64,000 nt of DNA from Planctomycetota bacterium. Its GTDB lineage: Bacteria; Planctomycetota; UBA8108; SXIK01. The translations under genes were made by a program, and so were the position numbers. The stretch covers positions 8,320,001 to 8,384,000 of the forward strand of contig OZ244999.1 of NCBI GenBank assembly GCA_965223265.1. Direction: 5' to 3'. The notes beneath the pieces are model-generated. The model saw nothing but the letters and a program-made list of their open reading frames with translations. It was not told the DNA's origin and ran no database searches. Positions 34,411 to 53,478 of this stretch are shown here, piece by piece. Positions within the stretch are counted from its first letter, which is position 1. Each line of letters opens with the position of its first letter.

Positions 34411-34620
34411 CCCGACAGTTGCATAAGTTTTCGCAGGAAGGGCTCAGAAACCCTTTCCCTGAGGTTCGATCGGCAGTTGAAGGACGTCGCGGCGGACCTC
34501 ACGTTTGGTGAGGTTGACGGTGTGCCGTGTTCCCCCTCGCCCACGCACACCCACACGCAAACTTTCACTCAATCGCAATCGCGCACGGTCTTAAGGCGCG
34601 TCTCTTTTGCAACGTTGGGG
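34411..34620 (+). mobile_element. 210-bp MITE, copy 1
   Basis: Near-identical inverted copy at 51251-51460. Imperfect IRs CCCGACAGTTGCATAAG and CCCCAACGTTGCAAAAG. ACAGA on both flanks. Confidence 0.88.
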
Positions 34621-49338: not shown

Positions 49339-50367
49339 ATGAACACGAATCACGAAGAGCAGAAACAAGAGCTCACGCGCCGCTCCTTCATCGGCACCGG
49401 AGGATCATTGGTCGGCGCAGCGGCGCTTGGCGTCTCGCTGAGCGGATGCGAGACCAGCGCTCAGCTCTCCGGCGCCTCGAAAGGGTCTACGGACCTCGGT
49501 GAGATACCGCGTCGGCTGCTCGGACGCACAGGAGCGAAGGTCAGTCTTCTTGGCCTCGGTACTGCGTGCACTGGTGAAGGGCCTCAAACCACGGCCGAGT
49601 GCGTCGAGGTCTACAGCGAAGCGATCGACCGCGGTATCAACTACATCGACACCGCGCGAATTTACGGCAATGCCGAGGAGGCGCTGAAGGGGGTGCTGAA
49701 GACGCGGCGTGACGACGTCTTTTTGGTCACGAAGTGTTTTACGGACACGGCAGCCGAAGCGCAGGAGTCGTTCGAGACCTCGCTGCGCACCATGGGCGTC
49801 GATCACGTCGACGTTCTGCATTTACACTCGGCGGGCGATCGTGACCTCGATCGTGTTTTGGCGCCTGGCGGCGCCTGGGAGTATCTCCTCAAGATGAAGG
49901 AGAGCGGGAAAGCACGCTTCCTTGGCATCACCGGGCATAGTCGTCCTGCGAATTTTGTCCGCATGCTCGACACCAAACAGGTCGACGTGATGATGGTGGC
50001 CATGAACTTCGTCGACCGACACGTCTATGGTTTCGAGGAAAAGGTCCTCCCCCGGGCGCGAGAACTCGGCACCGGTGTCATGGCCATGAAGGTGTTCGGC
50101 GGAATCTTGGGTGGATTCGCATTCAACCGCCAGCGTCGTCCGTCGCAGATGAATCCCGCATTTCTGCAGATCGCGGCGCGCTACTCGCTCAGCCTTGAGG
50201 GTGTCACCGGCGTCGTGATCGGGTGTCACGACACGTCGGAGCTGCGGCAGAACATTCGTTACGTGCTCAACGCTCCGCCACTCTCCGAGGCGGAGCTCGC
50301 GGCTCTGAAGTCGCACGGCGAACGGCTGGCGGCAGAGTGGGGCCCGCGTTTCGGGCCGGTTGTGTAG
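49339..50367 (+). CDS. Tat-exported aldo/keto reductase
   Basis: TRRSFI Tat motif, LGRTG, GINYIDTARIYG, GITGH, AMKVFG. Confidence 0.92.
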   Translation: MNTNHEEQKQELTRRSFIGTGGSLVGAAALGVSLSGCETSAQLSGASKGSTDLGEIPRRLLGRTGAKVSLLGLGTACTGEGPQTTAECVEVYSEAIDRGINYIDTARIYGNAEEALKGVLKTRRDDVFLVTKCFTDTAAEAQESFETSLRTMGVDHVDVLHLHSAGDRDLDRVLAPGGAWEYLLKMKESGKARFLGITGHSRPANFVRMLDTKQVDVMMVAMNFVDRHVYGFEEKVLPRARELGTGVMAMKVFGGILGGFAFNRQRRPSQMNPAFLQIAARYSLSLEGVTGVVIGCHDTSELRQNIRYVLNAPPLSEAELAALKSHGERLAAEWGPRFGPVV

Positions 50368-50380
50368 TCGGCGTTAGGAT

Positions 50381-50617
50381 CAGAAGCAGAGACGGAAGCA
50401 GAGACGGAAGCAGAGACGGAAGCAGACGGAAGCAGAGACGGAAGCAGAGACAGAAGCAGAGACAGAAGCAGAGACAGAAGCAGAGACAGAGCAGAGACAG
50501 AAGCAGAGACGGAAGCAGAGACAGAAGCAGAGACAGAAGCAGAGACAGAAGCAGAGACAGAAGCAGAGACAGAAGCAGAGACAGAAGCAGAGACAGAAGC
50601 AGAGACAGAAGCAGAGA
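50381..50617. repeat. Tandem array of about 20 x 12-mer GAAGCAGAGAC(A/G)
   Basis: Read directly. Two units carry 1-2 nt deletions. Confidence 0.95.
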
Positions 50618-50642
50618 AGAGGTGTGCCGCCAAGGGGCGTTT

Positions 50643-50825
50643 GCGGCGGCGGTATTGTCGAGCGTAGCCGGAGTGCGGACGGGGTCAAGGGTGCCCTCGC
50701 TTCGCTCGGCGCTTCGCGCCTTCTGAGAGTGACCGCACCCCGTCCGCCCTGCGGCTCGGGGAGTGAAACGCCGCCGCGTCGGGCGTGCGGCGACAAGTCA
50801 CTGGGCCGTTGACCGGAGTCTTCTC
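50643..50825 (+). promoter_or_regulatory. Conserved nested-hairpin leader of four-helix-bundle gene A
   Basis: Two blocks near-identical to the reverse complement of 51994-52115. Stems at 50643-51/50769-77 and 50675-85/50737-47. Confidence 0.7.
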
Positions 50826-51149
50826 ATGGGCTTTCTCGCTTTGGATCACTCTGTTGGCATCGTTCGTCAGTTGCGTCCGCTTGTCTCGCGTGTGCGTCGT
50901 CACGACTCGAGGCTTGCCGCTCAGCTGCGCGACGCGGGGTCCTCCGTGGCGCTGAATTTGGGCGAGGGCAATCGGCGCTCTGGTCGTGACCGCGGGCATC
51001 TCTGGCGTGTTGCCTCAGGCAGTGCCGAAGAGGTGCGTACGGCGCTTCGTGTTGCTGAGGCTTGGGGCTACGTCGATGCGCAGGAGACAGCTTCGGTGCT
51101 TGGGGACATCGACGAGCTGCAGGCGATGCTTTGGAAGCTGACGCGCTGA
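50826..51149 (+). CDS. Four helix bundle protein A (23S rRNA IVP / bAvd-like fold)
   Basis: QLRDAGSSVALNLGEG and A.GSA.E family signatures. 107 aa. Confidence 0.9.
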   Translation: MGFLALDHSVGIVRQLRPLVSRVRRHDSRLAAQLRDAGSSVALNLGEGNRRSGRDRGHLWRVASGSAEEVRTALRVAEAWGYVDAQETASVLGDIDELQAMLWKLTR

Positions 51150-51163
51150 GCTTGGGGTCTTGG

Positions 51164-51193
51164 GCCCGTCGTGCCTTTTTTGGCGCGGCGGGT
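51164..51193 (+). terminator. Hairpin 3' of gene A
   Basis: GCCCGTCGTGCC-TTTTTT-GGCGCGGCGGGT, a 12-bp stem with G.U pairs on the sense strand. Confidence 0.5.
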
Positions 51194-51250
51194 TTGAGGC
51201 GGGGGAGAGGCAGAGGGAGAGACGGGGACGGAACCGGAGGCAGAGACAGA

Positions 51251-51460
51251 CCTCAACGTTGCAAAAGAGACGCGCCTTAAGACCGTGCGCGATTGCGATT
51301 GAGTGAAAGTTTGCGTGTGGGTGTGCGTGGGCGAGGGGGAACACGGCACACCGTCAACCTCACCAAACGTGAGGTCCGCCGCGACGTCCTTCAACTGCCG
51401 ATCGAACCTCAGGGAAAGGGTTTCTGAGCCCTTCCTGCGAAAACTTATGCAACTGTCGGG
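51251..51460 (-). mobile_element. 210-bp MITE, copy 2 (inverted)
   Basis: Reverse complement of 34411-34620, one terminal mismatch seen. ACAGA on both flanks. Confidence 0.88.
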
Positions 51461-51570
51461 ACAGAGTCAGAATCAGAGACGGATGACGGATAGAGATACA
51501 GAACCAGATGACAGAGTCAGCGACGGAGACAGAATCAGAGACGAGATGACAGAGTCGGAATCAGATCCAG
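51461..51570. repeat. Degenerate GA-rich hexamer tract
   Basis: ACAGAG TCAGAA TCAGAG ACGGAT...; a similar tract lies at about 51196-51250. Confidence 0.7.
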
Positions 51571-51584
51571 AAGTCGCCGTGAGC

Positions 51585-51612
51585 AGCGCCCGCTACGAAA
51601 GTAGCGGGCGCT
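51585..51612. terminator. Perfect hairpin 3' of gene B
   Basis: AGCGCCCGCTAC-GAAA-GTAGCGGGCGCT. Confidence 0.6.
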
Positions 51613-51624
51613 TGGGCGTCTCGC

Positions 51625-51948
51625 TCAGCGCGTGAGGCCGCTGAGAAGAGCTAGGAGTCGATCGAGGGTCTGGAGAGGCACTGAGACGTCTTCGGTCTTG
51701 AGATCGCCCCAGGCCACAGAGAGCTGCAGGGCAGTCTCGACCTCCCGGGCACTGCCGCGGGCAGCGCGGTAGAGGTGCAGCGGATCTTTCCCAGCGCGCT
51801 CGGCCCCCTCCGAGAGATTGAGCGCGACGGAAGAGGCAGCCCGACGAATCTGCCGATGGAGATCGGGATCAAGCCTCCGAAGCCGCAGCAATGGAGCCCG
51901 CAAGTCGCGAATCAAACCAAGACTGACATCGAGAGCGATGAAGCGCAT
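51625..51948 (-). CDS. Four helix bundle protein B (paralog of A)
   Basis: QIRRAASSVALNLSEG, ARGSARE. 107 aa, about 53/107 identical to A without gaps (hand count). Confidence 0.9.
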   Translation of the reverse strand: MRFIALDVSLGLIRDLRAPLLRLRRLDPDLHRQIRRAASSVALNLSEGAERAGKDPLHLYRAARGSAREVETALQLSVAWGDLKTEDVSVPLQTLDRLLALLSGLTR

Positions 51949-52115
51949 GAAAGACCTCCGCAGAACGTAGAGTGAACAGCTCCGCCGCGTCCGGGCGGCG
52001 GTACTCCACCCCCCGACGCGGAGCGGAGTGGGTGTCAAGGGCGCGCAGCGCCGAGCGCAGCGAGGGCACCCTTGACAGTTCCGAGCACCGCGTACGCTCG
52101 ACAAGACCGCCGCCG
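51949..52115 (-). promoter_or_regulatory. Conserved nested-hairpin leader of gene B
   Basis: Stems GGCGGCGGT/ACCGCCGCC (51994-52002/52106-14) and TGTCAAGGG/CCCTTGACA (52033-41/52069-77). Confidence 0.7.
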
Positions 52116-52124
52116 TACGGTGAC

Positions 52125-52230
52125 CTCCCACTCCTCCCACTCCTCCCACTCCTCCCACTCCGCCTCCCACTCCGCCTCCCACGCAAACGCAAACGCAAAC
52201 GCAAACGCAAACGCAAACGCAAACGCAAAC
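52125..52230. repeat. Compound microsatellite: (CTCCCACTC)x4, two longer variants, (GCAAAC)x8
   Basis: Read directly. Confidence 0.95.
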
Positions 52231-52344
52231 GAAGAGCCTGCCACCTTGGCGGCCGAATGGCGAAACTCCGACTAGCTCAGCGCCAGACCCAGGCTAGAAC
52301 ACCGTCCGGCAACGAACACGGGGTCCCATCGCGTGCGTCCGCTC

Positions 52345-53478
52345 TCACGGCGACGGTTTCCCCGCCTCTGACTTTTGAAACCGCTGCTTCATCCGACCCC
52401 AAAGACGCTGCAGCCAACGACCGCGGACGACCTTCTCGGTCGTTGTCTCCGCCGAGGCGTCAAACAGGTGACGCAGATCATCGACGAAGGCATCGTAGGA
52501 TTCCAGCACCGACTCGTAATAGCCCTTTTCGTGGATGCGCCTGAACGCCGTCGCGTAGTAGTCGATGAAATTGTCGTCGATCAGATCGAGCGCCACTTTG
52601 GCCGCACCGTGCGCGGTCTTGCCGGCGCGCACCATTTGTGTGAACGTCATCATGGCGACAGCGTTCGACACCTCGAAGAGGGAGCGCCCTTCGAGGCGAA
52701 CTGTGTCCTGGATCTCATTCCAGACGCGCTCGATGTCTTTTATGGGAACGAGACTCGCGAGGTCGGTCGTCTGCGATTGCTCGCGGAGCTGGGCGACCAT
52801 GGCCCGCAATTGATCCACTGTGACGGGTGGTGTGTCGAGACCATCTGCGAGGGTCCCCGAGGTCTTTTGTAACGCGTCGAGGAGACCATCGACGTTTTCG
52901 ATCGTATCGCTTTCGTCGATGACGCCTTGCTGACGCAGCTCGTCAACGAGCGCGTTGAGATAGGAGCGTGCGCCGAGGGCCACGTCGCTAAAGATGGCGA
53001 TCACCCAAAGCGGTGAAACGTGCATCACGGAGAGCCCGGCGATGTCGATGACGTTGCCGACGGCCTTCTTGACGACGAATTGATCATCTTCGCCGCTCGT
53101 GGTCTTCGCGTCTGCTTCGGGATTGTCTTTGTCACCCGAAGGTTTCAGACGTCCGACGTCATCGGCAAGAAAACCGAGCATCTTTTGCACCGTAATGTCG
53201 TAGAGGCGGCCACCCTTGAACGCGTCCGGCACAACGACCTTGGCTGCGTCGCGGACCGTGCGGCTGGTAGTGCCGATCATCGCGCGAGCCAACCGCTCCG
53301 GCACGCTCAAGCCTTAGACGGCAGCGTCGACGGCGGCCGACAACGCGTCTGTTGCCCCATCTTCGGGGCGGTTCGCCTCTGGGGACGCCTCATTCTCCAG
53401 TTCTCCGGAGCGTACGGAATCGCCGCTGCTCGCGTCCATGTTTGCCTCTTGTGGCTGGGTGGGATCGTTTGCTGGCAT
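52345..53478 (-). pseudogene. Hypothetical protein with an in-frame TAA at codon 55
   Basis: ATG at 53478 (AGGTGA upstream) reads 54 codons to TAA (53314-16), then the same frame continues GLSVPERLAR for about 320 aa. Confidence 0.55.

Follow-up and report, generated by a model that had tools for sequence, protein, structure and literature searches.

Genes encoding small four-helix-bundle (4HB) proteins of the PF05635 family are preceded, throughout the genome of a Planctomycetota bacterium, by a hairpin with a near-invariant tip. Forty copies of this hairpin, each approximately 135–150 nt long, are present in the 9.18-Mb source genome; 39 were identified by their core sequence and one diverged copy by a covariance model. 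Our leading interpretation, which we hold tentatively, is that the hairpin is a structured RNA leader of a selfish cassette that is transcribed by read-through, and that it would present its tip to a host factor. The tip recurs across phyla, yet it is absent from the Rfam 15 catalogue.

Two convergent cassettes with conserved leaders

We analyzed a stretch of 64,000 nucleotides from the Planctomycetota bacterium assembly GCA_965223265.1 (contig OZ244999.1, positions 8,320,001–8,384,000, forward strand), hereafter the window. Coordinates in the following list are relative to the window.

49339–50367, + strand: co-oriented host gene upstream of leader A
50380–50618, + strand: short-period tandem repeats of the AGCAGAGACAGA type, between the host-gene stop and leader A
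50643–50777, + strand: leader A hairpin, an atypical variant (R1 score 104.8 bits)
within 50643–50777, + strand: outer stem of leader A, GCGGCGGCG(G) pairing with CGCCGCCGC
50684–50720, + strand: near-invariant 37-nt core of leader A, forming the hairpin tip
from 50721, + strand: 16-nt segment of leader A in place of the 3' strand of the tip stem
50815–50818, + strand: Shine-Dalgarno sequence GGAG of gene A, 7 nt 5' of the ATG, conserved in the leader alignment
50826–51149, + strand: gene A, encoding a 107-aa 4HB protein of subfamily A (MGFLALDH...; PF05635 54.5 bits, TIGR02436 56.5 bits)
51164–51197, + strand: GC-rich hairpin 3' of gene A, GGGCCCGYCG...CGGCGGG followed by TTTGA, from the downstream-region alignment
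51244–51447, no strand assigned: dispersed repeat of approximately 200 nt between convergent cassettes A and B, separate from the leader, found by BLAST
51585–51612, − strand: GC-rich hairpin 3' of gene B, AGCGCCCGCTAC-GAAA-GTAGCGGGCGCT, kept after type-B genes
51625–51948, − strand: gene B, encoding a 107-aa 4HB protein of subfamily B (MRFIALDV...; PF05635 48.8 bits, TIGR02436 49.3 bits)
51955–51959, − strand: Shine-Dalgarno sequence GGAGG of gene B (CCTCC on the + strand)
51994–52115, − strand: leader B hairpin, typical form (R1 score 114.1 bits)
within 51994–52115, − strand: outer stem of leader B, GGCGGCGGT pairing with ACCGCCGCC, and tip stem, UGUCAAGGG pairing with CCCUUGACA
52040–52076, − strand: near-invariant 37-nt core of leader B
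52126–52232, − strand: short-period tandem repeats of the GGGAGGAGT type plus CGTTTG (on the sense strand of B), between the host-gene stop and leader B
52345–53310, − strand: co-oriented host gene upstream of leader B

The sequence-only reading of this region had described two leaders that fold as nested hairpins, and most of its description was confirmed. The leaders lie where it had placed them, at 50643–50825 (+) and 51949–52115 (−), the limits of the latter being correct because the start codon of gene B is the CAT at 51946–51948. They share two blocks: CGGCGGCGGT(A/C)TTGTCGAGCGTA, identical at 22 of 23 positions, and GTCAAGGGTGCCCTCGCT(T/G)CGCTCGGCGCT(T/G)CGCGCC, identical at 35 of 37. 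The match between the cores is far above chance. The nested hairpin is real and the arm pairings attributed to each leader are present; what had been taken for two small CGCT(T/G)CGC hairpins is better read as a bulge and one GC-clamped terminal hairpin.

Both genes belong to PF05635/TIGR02436, and the proteins that they encode are identical at 52 of 105 aligned residues (~50%). Identity between A and B rises from ~57% in the coding DNA to 72.5% over the whole hairpin and 94.6% in the core; the leader is therefore better conserved than the gene, as had been claimed, and most strongly so at the tip. The sole relative of the 4HB protein A in the PDB is 2GSC. The GC-rich hairpin at 51164–51197 is kept after type-A genes and was not scored as a canonical terminator.

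A multicopy cassette in the source genome

Searching the source genome for the 37-mer core with up to six mismatches recovered 39 copies, compared to none for the reversed pattern. The hairpin copies are chromosomal, occur in both orientations, and lie between protein genes. The proposed tie between hairpin and 4HB genes holds in this genome: 34 of the 39 cores precede an intact 107-aa 4HB ORF that starts at +122 to +144, two precede frameshifted ORFs, and three have none. The genome contains 38 PF05635 matches, against the 39 cores and one diverged copy, and an intact 4HB gene at 5,176,314 has lost its hairpin by deletion. Four of the 40 copies, leader A among them, carry a 16-nt segment that replaces the 3' strand CCCTTGAC.

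The hairpin is one part of a cassette of approximately 0.55 kb that comprises, in order, short tandem repeats, the hairpin, a Shine-Dalgarno sequence, a 107-aa PF05635 gene, and a GC hairpin. A TRF array ends within 150 nt upstream in 29 of the 40 units. Seven pairs of cassettes are convergent, each formed by one A-type and one B-type unit, and in these the hairpins are the inverted outer ends. Separately, the ~200-nt dispersed repeat at 51244–51447 has 22 BLAST hits in the genome and occurs, in either orientation, in five of the seven convergent pairs.

When the closest upstream ORF of 200 aa or longer was considered, 24 units shared its orientation and 11 had the opposite one, with none found for five; in all nine units in which it lies within 500 nt, it is co-oriented. 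These counts rest on crude ORF filters (long-ORF calls). Gene calling by GC3 periodicity was dropped, since tandem repeats of 6 and 12 nt and the moderate G+C content confounded it, and a cruder ORF list was also noisy. In other phyla, upstream genes are likewise mostly co-oriented (34 vs 12), compared to 20 vs 23 for downstream genes; this orientation mostly reflects a location at gene 3' ends, a pattern that would also suit a DNA-level extragenic repeat. Such biases raise the prospect that the hairpin belongs to the upstream gene, as a terminator or a hairpin protecting its 3' end, or else is a free-standing small RNA gene. The short second hairpin that follows the rod in several lineages would agree with this, as would the many copies elsewhere that have no co-oriented downstream gene. 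We nevertheless consider it quite unlikely. Upstream stop codons lie anywhere between ~140 and several thousand nt from the hairpin, against the fixed position of the 4HB start codon, and tandem repeats of variable length separate host gene and hairpin. Moreover, a scan at leaders A and B found no T-tract after the hairpin, and genomes without the 4HB gene also lack the hairpin.

Covariation and strand of the hairpin

Whereas the lower stems vary, the tip is near-invariant; its parts are a UCAAGGG/CCCUUGA stem, the C-rich bulge UNCCCU, and a terminal hairpin with a GC clamp. In alignments of homologous leaders, the hairpin pairs were found to covary. RNAalifold predicted 39 pairs, 11 of which had changed on both sides. 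For a hand-drawn structure with 44 pairs, 91.9% of the cells were paired across 26 distinct copies, compared to 32.5–50.2% when slid; 15 pairs had changed on both sides and none of 500 shuffles reached the covariation score, with the caveat that a single protein binding both arms of an inverted repeat could produce a similar signal. G·U pairs outnumbered A·C mismatches in the hairpin by 117 to 13, a count to be read in light of G·T also being the most tolerated mismatch in single-stranded DNA. The folding energies of the single leaders A and B were no better than those of shuffles (z = −0.79 and −1.75, respectively); hence it is covariation, rather than energy, that supports the fold.

In all 26 distinct copies, the sense strand of the gene folds more stably than the antisense strand (mean −11.6 kcal/mol). 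This bias is confined to the present lineage: in other lineages the sense strand was the more stable in only 47 of 107 hairpins, i.e., there was no strand bias. In copies of type A, of type B, and of G007 (a related genome described below), a GCGGCGG farther downstream is an alternative pairing partner for CCGCCGC, the 3' strand of the outer stem. The Shine-Dalgarno sequence is not clearly sequestered in the source genome, and no ligand pocket can be inferred.

Two other explanations for the core were rejected. It is not a coding sequence, as the lengths of distinct cores, between 32 and 45 nt, differ by amounts that are not multiples of three. Mimicry of rRNA was dismissed on the basis that comparison of the core with the rRNA operon region gave at most 13 matches and that the tip motifs are absent there.

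The sequence-only reading had offered two functions for the leader, a promoter on single-stranded DNA or a cis-acting RNA. The latter, including a non-coding RNA, is compatible with our results because the nested hairpin is real, covaries, and is tied to 4HB genes in the source genome; the former, modeled on Frpo-type promoters, found no support. Frpo-type promoters occur in the leading regions of conjugative plasmids, ahead of genes of the ssb/psiB/ardA type; their −35 and −10 boxes are placed in long hairpins, and they are active on single- but not on double-stranded templates. The present leader resembles them in being a long imperfect hairpin with TTGAC in its stem that folds, in the source genome, on one strand. 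Nevertheless, it is very improbable that it acts on single-stranded DNA as a Frpo-like promoter or initiation site. No −10 element or promoter-like pair accompanies it: a promoter scan detected no promoter-like site in 50643–50825 or 51949–52115, the sole site in 50200–52400 being at 51508–51535; the leaders contain no TANNNT 16–18 nt from TTGAC and no −35/−10 pair in duplex register. TTGAC is instead accounted for by the conserved stem, whose 3' strand reads CCCUUGA(C); TTGACA occurs in some type-B copies only and most type-A copies carry the 5' arm CTCAAGG. The genomic setting also differs, with 40 chromosomal sites in both orientations, no adjacent conjugative leading-region genes, no match to the element in 72,556 plasmid records, and none in viral contigs.

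Distribution in related genomes and other phyla

The hairpin was found in four of the 59 genomes of the class, the source genome included. Genome G007 contains 11–12 copies, and all 11 hits are followed by a 4HB frame that starts within ~40 nt; five of these frames are complete, one is frameshifted, and five are cut by contig ends. In G021, the leader precedes all three 4HB genes. Three genomes of the same family have neither the 4HB gene nor the hairpin, and in G005 a close 4HB gene lies behind an unrelated perfect hairpin. Orthologues of both host genes are 30 kb apart in G001, where the site is not syntenic and so provides no empty-site comparison. Across the phylum, the exact tip pattern was present in three of 401 sampled genomes, compared to none for the reversed control.

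Long hairpins that end in this tip occur in at least seven phyla, including Planctomycetota, Actinomycetota, Acidobacteriota, Myxococcota, and Gemmatimonadota. In 59 sequences from across these phyla, the 16 pairs around the tip were 86.6% paired, compared to 35–45% when slid, and nine had changed on both sides. Of 61 distinct cores, 52 form a terminal stem of at least 5 bp, and this stem occurs in five compensatory versions. The neighbors of the tip elsewhere are 4HB, DUF222-HNH, IS91, or small zinc-ribbon genes, or there is no constant gene. The hairpin tip lies 160–230 nt 5' of co-oriented DUF222 genes in Actinomycetota, and the DUF222-HNH genes beside it score above the Pfam cut-off at two loci (L130 and L120). 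An IS91 transposase adjoins the tip at L175 (65.7 bits), while at L126 the tip is found where an IS3-type transposase ORF ends. At seven Thermoanaerobaculia loci, a tip-capped hairpin is located 65 nt 5' of a conserved 67-aa zinc-ribbon ORF, the Shine-Dalgarno sequence of which is buried by a second hairpin. The Sorangium copies have no constant neighbor gene, and in a Nocardioides genome the tip is repeated in ~470-nt tandem arrays.

This distribution bears on the proposal that the leader is bound by the 4HB protein itself, which we find doubtful. Under that proposal, the hairpin would be an autoregulatory operator, serving as an RNA or DNA binding site for the protein encoded behind it. The strict pairing of gene and hairpin in the source genome, G007, and G021 would accord with such a role, as would the occurrence of the same tip before two protein subfamilies with 50% identity. 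Avd, the nucleic-acid-binding protein found in diversity-generating retroelements, is related to the 4HB proteins, and the PF05635 family forms basic pentameric rings, as the account of a Xanthomonas S23p structure also indicates (PMC4990558). However, an identical tip is present in other phyla without a nearby 4HB gene, among them the Sorangium copies. Of 113 motif matches in other genomes, eight were positive with a profile built from the source-genome 4HB proteins and 29 had too little flanking sequence; this profile is too narrow for other phyla, for which Pfam was run on selected ORFs instead, and these neighbor-gene tests cover a minority of the 113 matches. The quite different hairpin ahead of the G005 gene also argues against an operator, and two subfamilies that differ at half of their residues would need to read an identical site. 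Altogether, we regard an operator as unlikely.

A DNA-level signal is a more serious competitor, although still somewhat improbable in our estimation. Here the hairpin would be a REP- or MITE-like extragenic palindrome, acting as single-stranded DNA or as a cruciform, that selfish cassettes use as a site for recognition, recombination, or mobility; the neighboring gene (4HB here, and DUF222-HNH, IS91, or another gene in other phyla) would travel with it or exploit it. The sequence-only reading had set its proposals against a REP-like repeat scattered independently of 4HB genes, a description that fails for the source genome but in part applies to the other phyla. Several observations suit a DNA signal. 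The hairpin is multicopy and patchy, from 40 copies in the source genome to none in three genomes of its family, and rare in the phylum as an exact tip. Copies are situated at gene 3' ends, and the seven convergent A and B pairs with inverted outer hairpins resemble REP-bracketed genes. In other phyla the tip accompanies DUF222-HNH, IS91, and IS3-type genes, forms the Nocardioides arrays, and folds without strand bias. In addition, a 2.7-kb element encoding a large serine recombinase is inserted at the same nucleotide of the hairpin in five copies, and the site is therefore recognized as DNA, at least by that enzyme. These five identical insertions define a natural multicopy attachment site.

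Against a DNA signal, the tip is conserved and the base variable, whereas transposon inverted repeats and attC sites show the reverse. Conservation of the tip also extends across phyla despite the differing neighbor genes, and thus no element-encoded partner can explain it. Candidate enzymes are poorly placed in the source genome: its only Y1 (RAYT-type) match is ~385 kb from the nearest hairpin copy, there is no DUF222 match, and its four IS91 copies are not beside hairpins. The alignments reveal neither target-site duplications nor sharp ends, with homology fading on both sides into differing tandem repeats. Finally, the sense strand is favored in every distinct copy of the source genome, and copies occur in both orientations within one region, unlike in strand-specific single-strand transposition.

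Comparison with known systems

Close parallels to the cassette are found in the intervening sequences (IVSs) of 23S rRNA. PMC4990558 describes IVSs with an S23p ORF in Coxiella, Leptospira, and others, and S23p/PF05635 ORFs that sit in RNase III-processed hairpin elements with heptamer repeats 5' of the ORF. The two systems share the PF05635 gene family, a long hairpin attached to the ORF, GACAGA-containing short tandem repeats just 5' of the ORF, a selfish-looking, patchy occurrence, and, presumably, a place inside a host transcription unit. They differ in that the complementary ends of the IVS, as described there, enclose the ORF, whereas the present hairpin is self-contained and lies 5' of it; the repeats flanking a unit are not complementary to each other. 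Furthermore, the one 23S gene found (2,007,925–2,010,917) contains no hairpin copy, and most of the present ORFs are intact and have a strong ribosome-binding site.

Like REP, REPIN, and BIME sequences, the hairpins are palindromes present in many extragenic copies, chiefly at gene 3' ends, and inverted pairs of them bracket genes. REPs are lineage-specific, approximately 20–40 nt long, paired with a Y1 transposase, and, in known cases, transcribed with neighboring genes. The present hairpin, in contrast, measures 135–150 nt, has a tip common to at least seven phyla, and is joined, with fixed spacing, to a 4HB gene whose product is not an enzyme; the sole PF01797 match in the genome is at 4,206,881–4,207,093, with the nearest hairpin copy at 4,592,759. 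In integron attC sites, one strand folds, the base (R boxes) is conserved and the terminal part variable, and the sites lie 3' of cassettes in an integrase-linked array. An imperfect hairpin attached to a single small promoterless ORF recalls this arrangement, but the conserved tip and variable base invert it, and the present copies are 5' of the ORF and dispersed singly or in convergent pairs.

Structured cis-regulatory leader RNAs, whether riboswitch-like or protein-binding 5' UTR motifs, are comparable in their fixed distance to the start codon, in covarying stems around an invariant module, and in recurring before orthologous genes in other lineages. The present hairpin departs from them in being a simple rod with no multi-stem junction, in its many copies, and in its link to selfish genes instead of a metabolic regulon. 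It also has no Rfam 15 counterpart. The Rfam search proposed in the sequence-only reading gave no match to Rfam 15 families in the 64-kb window, with only chance-level matches at E ≤ 10 in 50300–52400, and nothing was found on the hairpins at E ≤ 0.1 across 19 loci from six phyla. In the DUF222-HNH "13E12 repeat" family, a repeat element is an attachment site for a serine-integrase prophage; the same tip 5' of Actinomycetota DUF222 genes and the serine recombinase element in five hairpins of the source genome are reminiscent of this, although that genome has no DUF222 match. The titles and abstract openings of the literature on PF05635/TIGR02436/S23 proteins mention no leader, and a literature search with the 8-mers GTCAAGGG and CCCTTGAC returned, among the matches listed, apparently unrelated primers only.

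A possible role for the leader and its implications

We tentatively favor a model in which the leader is the fixed 5' module of the multicopy cassette and acts as RNA. The hairpin would fold on the sense strand of the gene, where the lower stems need only pair and the tip stays constant. As the cassettes have no recognizable promoter and follow co-oriented host genes at a distance of a few hundred bases, they are probably transcribed by read-through. By analogy with the RNase III-cut stems of 23S rRNA IVSs, the hairpin may delimit the cassette mRNA, with a role in processing and/or stability. It could also set the translation of the gene that starts ~45 nt downstream, by showing its tip to a conserved host factor.

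It is conceivable, if on balance doubtful, that the tip is more widely a portable recognition module for one conserved host factor across phyla, adopted separately by unrelated selfish genes, i.e., those encoding 4HB proteins, DUF222-HNH nucleases, IS91 transposases, and a small zinc-ribbon protein. In that event it might signal expression or copying from within foreign transcription units. That the motif is tightly kept beside such different selfish genes implies a shared partner, which could be fished for with the hairpin as bait.

To our knowledge, PF05635 4HB genes are among the commonest bacterial genes without a known function, and we know of nothing on their expression or spread outside diversity-generating retroelements and rRNA intervening sequences. 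If the tip is indeed such a portable module, it would represent a new class of structured RNA or single-strand element and could hint at the role of this very large, function-less family. The 40-copy cassette family, with its covariation-supported hairpin, provides a concrete and mutable element for work on PF05635.

Two hairpin leaders and their genes

Two cassettes encoding four-helix-bundle (4HB) proteins face each other in the window, and in each a hairpin leader directly precedes the gene.

Cassette features in the window
50643-50825, +: leader A
50826-51149, +: gene A, 107 aa (PF05635, 54.5 bits; also TIGR02436), its start abutting leader A
51625-51948, -: gene B, 107 aa (PF05635, 48.8 bits; also TIGR02436), its start abutting leader B
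51949-52115, -: leader B
50769-50795: alternative pairing of the outer stem, leader A
51975-52002, -: alternative pairing of the outer stem, leader B

The sequence at both leaders agrees with the description in the sequence-only reading: the two conserved blocks are identical at 22/23 and 35/37 positions, and the boundary of leader B was correctly placed, with gene B starting directly 3' of it. Proteins A and B share 52 of 105 aligned residues, and identity between the two cassettes is ~57% in the coding DNA, 72.5% in the hairpin and 94.6% in its 37-nt core, the nearly invariant tip of a rod hairpin. Folded alone, neither leader had a better energy than shuffled sequence (z = -0.79 and -1.75); the case for structure therefore depends on comparing copies.

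Both cassettes lie ~270-320 nt past the stop codon of a co-oriented host gene. A promoter scan found no promoter-like site before leader A or leader B, and a good Shine-Dalgarno site lies ~35 nt 3' of the hairpin. The earlier suggestion that the leader is a single-strand promoter or origin fails where it can be tested, and we regard it as highly improbable.

CCGCCGC, which forms the 3' strand of the outer stem, has an alternative partner in GCGGCGG just downstream, so that two mutually exclusive hairpins can form; the same is seen in other copies and in G007, a genome of the same order and another family. This pairing may be a switch or a mere by-product of GGC repeats.

A 40-copy cassette family

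The genome containing the window (G000; one contig, 9,179,496 bases, 60.8% G+C) carries 39 copies of the core with at most six mismatches and no copy of the reversed core, used as a control. A covariance model contributes one further, diverged copy (7,739,170-7,739,320), bringing the family to 40. PF05635 has 38 matches in this genome, 36 of them above the cut-off. Behind 34 of the 39 cores an intact 107-aa ORF is found at +122 to +144; the ORF is frameshifted behind two cores and missing behind three. The proteins divide into subfamily A (MGFLALDH...) and subfamily B (MRFIALDV...), with the same core ahead of both and a GC hairpin 3' of each gene whose version differs by subfamily. Seven pairs of copies are convergent at a spacing of ~1.15-1.4 kb, each combining one A with one B, and one of these pairs is that of the window.

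The closest ORF of 200 aa or more upstream of a unit shares its orientation in 24 cases and opposes it in 11, none being found in five; where an upstream ORF lies within 500 nt, it is co-oriented in 9/9. Two natural deletion forms were observed: at G000:C1:5176080-5176640 the hairpin has been deleted between two CGT(A/T)ACCG repeats ahead of an intact type-A gene, and at 8664787-8664924 the 5' half of the hairpin and the core run straight into the final codons of a type-A gene. In four copies, leader A among them, a 16-nt segment has taken the place of the 3' strand of the tip stem. In G000, the hairpin belongs integrally to the 4HB cassette and has a set orientation in it.

Covariation supports the fold

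From 28 intact copies, RNAalifold predicted 39 pairs, 11 with compensatory changes. We also drew a 44-pair structure by hand and evaluated it on 26 distinct copies: 91.9% of cells were paired, compared to 32.5-50.2% with the 3' partners slid, 15 pairs showed changes on both sides, and none of 500 shuffles matched its covariation score. The long middle stem is the variable, compensated part of the hairpin; the outer stem (G)GCGGCGG/CCGCCGC(C) and the top 45 nt vary little. There were 117 G.U pairs versus 13 A.C mismatches, and the sense strand was more stable than the antisense in 26/26 distinct copies (mean difference 11.6 kcal/mol), indicating that the fold is a property of the gene's sense strand. 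Such a one-strand fold fits RNA; single-stranded DNA also tolerates G.T.

Distribution among relatives

A covariance-model search found the hairpin in 4/59 genomes of the class, G000 included. G007 has 11-12 copies, and behind all 11 first hits a 4HB frame begins within ~40 nt (five complete, one frameshifted, five cut by contig ends). In another of these relatives, G021, the leader precedes 3/3 4HB genes. Three genomes of the same family as G000 yielded neither the hairpin nor a PF05635 match. A single, close 4HB gene in G005 instead follows (CGGACT)n hexamer repeats and a perfect but unrelated hairpin of ~31 bp (L210:1825-1900, -), whose 3' arm contains the gene's Shine-Dalgarno AAGGGAGG, burying the site; the layout of a hairpin before a 4HB gene thus persists with another sequence. 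The exact tip pattern occurs in 3/401 sampled genomes of the phylum and the reversed control in 0/401. Occurrence is thus patchy, with expansions in particular lineages.

A tip shared across phyla

We derived a pattern from the tips (stem UCAAGGG/CCCUUGA, bulge UNCCCU and a GC-clamped end hairpin) of G000, G007 and G021 and searched a collection of species-representative genomes. It was present in at least 107 stretches (113 matches, with 61 distinct cores among the matches listed). By record title, these came from Actinomycetota (Nocardioides and several MAGs), Acidobacteriota (Thermoanaerobaculia, Vicinamibacterales, Bryobacterales), Myxococcota (Sorangium, Polyangiaceae), Gemmatimonadota, Dormibacteraeota, Methylomirabilia and Planctomycetota. 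A match in Thiodiazotropha looks like chance. The pattern had no match in 2.9 million viral contigs, the leader none in a plasmid collection, and no Rfam 15 family matched the hairpins of the window or of other phyla.

Wherever the fold is good, the matched sequence forms the tip of a rod hairpin 130-180 nt long. Across 59 representative sequences, 16 pairs around the tip were 86.6% paired versus 35-45% when slid, with both-side changes at nine. Among the matches listed, the terminal stem reaches at least 5 bp in 52/61 cores, in five compensatory versions; in 11 cores a tip-stem G has become A and its partner C has become T, and this pair is non-Watson-Crick in just 4/61. We rejected a coding core because the cores differ in length by numbers of nucleotides not divisible by three. 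Many copies from Acidobacteriota, Myxococcota, Gemmatimonadota and Planctomycetota also have inner loops in common (5' GGUGCUCGG with 3' CCUGCGC, and 5' CAUUG), as well as a GCCAUCG/CGAUGGC-type outer stem.

Neighbouring genes in other genomes

A 4HB profile from G000 matched beside 8/113 motif matches among those listed, 29 having too little flank: the loci were from Planctomycetota MAGs, G021 and two Polyangiaceae, with Pfam confirming the 4HB at L147 and L189. Autoregulation by the 4HB protein is weakened by the tips without a nearby 4HB gene, and we consider it unlikely.

Other neighbours vary. Seven Thermoanaerobaculia loci (L137:640-1001; L096, L110, L132, L133, L157, L185) share a conserved 67-aa zinc-ribbon ORF with CxxC...C motifs, 65 nt past the core and without a Pfam match; a second hairpin between the tip hairpin and this ORF pairs CCCUCCCU with its ribosome-binding site, sequestering it. 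DUF222 genes lie 160-230 nt downstream at several Actinomycetota loci, above the Pfam cut-off at L130 and L120 and below it at L115 and L159 because these genes are truncated. An IS91 zinc-binding transposase domain (65.7 bits) lies ~390 nt downstream at L175, which L114 resembles by eye, and at L126 an IS3-type transposase ORF carries the hairpin at its end. In a Nocardioides sp. (L101:500-1900), three tandem ~470-nt noncoding units, each with a tip-bearing hairpin and other palindromes, stop short of a DUF222-type ORF, and the motif occurs at no fewer than 15 other loci of this genome. Sorangium genomes have 1-5 copies each with no constant neighbour gene, and the one copy of genome G440 has no 4HB ORF.

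Among 84 matches flanked by 700 nt on either side, sequence upstream reads as coding on the match's own strand in 34 and on the other strand in 12; for sequence downstream the counts are 20 and 23, respectively. Most of this asymmetry would be expected from elements that are tolerated at the 3' ends of genes. In these other genomes, the sense fold is the more stable one in just 47/107. A terminator or free small RNA, conceivable mainly for the other phyla, seems quite improbable.

Insertions and repeats around cassettes

Several repeats accompany the cassettes in G000.

Repeats in the window
34424-34617: ~200-nt dispersed repeat
51244-51447: ~200-nt dispersed repeat
50380-50618: short-period tandem repeats
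51450-51570: short-period tandem repeats
52126-52232: short-period tandem repeats

The dispersed repeat (22 BLAST hits) has ~14-nt imperfect inverted ends (CAACGTTGCAAAAG / CTTATGCAACTGTCG) and lies between the genes, in either orientation, in 5/7 convergent pairs. Tandem repeats with periods of 6, 12 or 18 nt (for example GAGACA, CACGCC and CAAACG) occupy many intergenic regions (604 genome-wide); 76 are within 1.5 kb of a cassette, ~10 times the genome share of those flanks, and such repeats also precede the G007, G021 and G005 cassettes. A small hairpin, (A)AAGTAGCAGGCACAC....GTGTGCCGTCCGG, recurs beside cassettes, sometimes in tandem (flanks of copies 4592759, 5650102, 5662557, 6172768, 5573704, 2583919 and 7189138), and has replaced the 3' half of the leader in copy 5573704.

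Five type-B hairpins, none in the window, are interrupted at an identical point, between ...GGTGCTCG.....GT and GTCAAGGG, by a ~2.7-kb element (G000:C1:7186400-7189300 (L221); 2583919; 6781799; 8597818; 8979553). Its product is a large serine recombinase of 702 aa that has Resolvase, Recombinase and Zn_ribbon_recom domains. The hairpin of the leader is thus an attachment site present in many copies.

A DNA-level, REP-like signal is the strongest rival to an RNA leader, and we judge it somewhat unlikely. It would account for the many, patchily spread copies, for convergent pairs whose inverted outer ends are hairpins, for the nuclease and transposase neighbours and absent strand bias in other phyla, and for the five recombinase-element insertions at one hairpin point. 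However, it is the tip rather than the ends that is conserved, no element-encoded partner is held in common, and no target duplication was seen. Moreover, in G000 the sole Y1 transposase match is ~385 kb from any copy, DUF222 was not found, and the four IS91 copies do not adjoin hairpins.

A putative RNA leader

Our best reading, held tentatively and drawn from sequence, is that the hairpin is a transcribed RNA leader of the cassette, because upstream genes are mostly co-oriented, no promoter-like site was found before either leader of the window, the Shine-Dalgarno site lies behind the hairpin and stability is biased to the sense strand. The cassette would be transcribed by read-through, the rod hairpin would delimit or stabilise its mRNA, and the conserved tip would be presented to a host factor. 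To our knowledge, 23S rRNA intervening sequences are the sole characterised habitat of the 4HB gene family, which by analogy supports an RNA leader. One account of these sequences describes an S23p ORF inside a stem-loop cut by RNase III and, in Coxiella, GACAGAT heptamer repeats preceding the S23p ORF (PMC4990558). The resemblance of these heptamers to the GAGACA/GACAGA repeats that precede type-A cassettes in G000 is striking.

The structured element is real and supported by covariation, and no Rfam 15 family matched it in the searches made. Its function is putative; in G000 the element is closely tied to a selfish-looking cassette present in 40 copies, and conservation of its tip extends across phyla.
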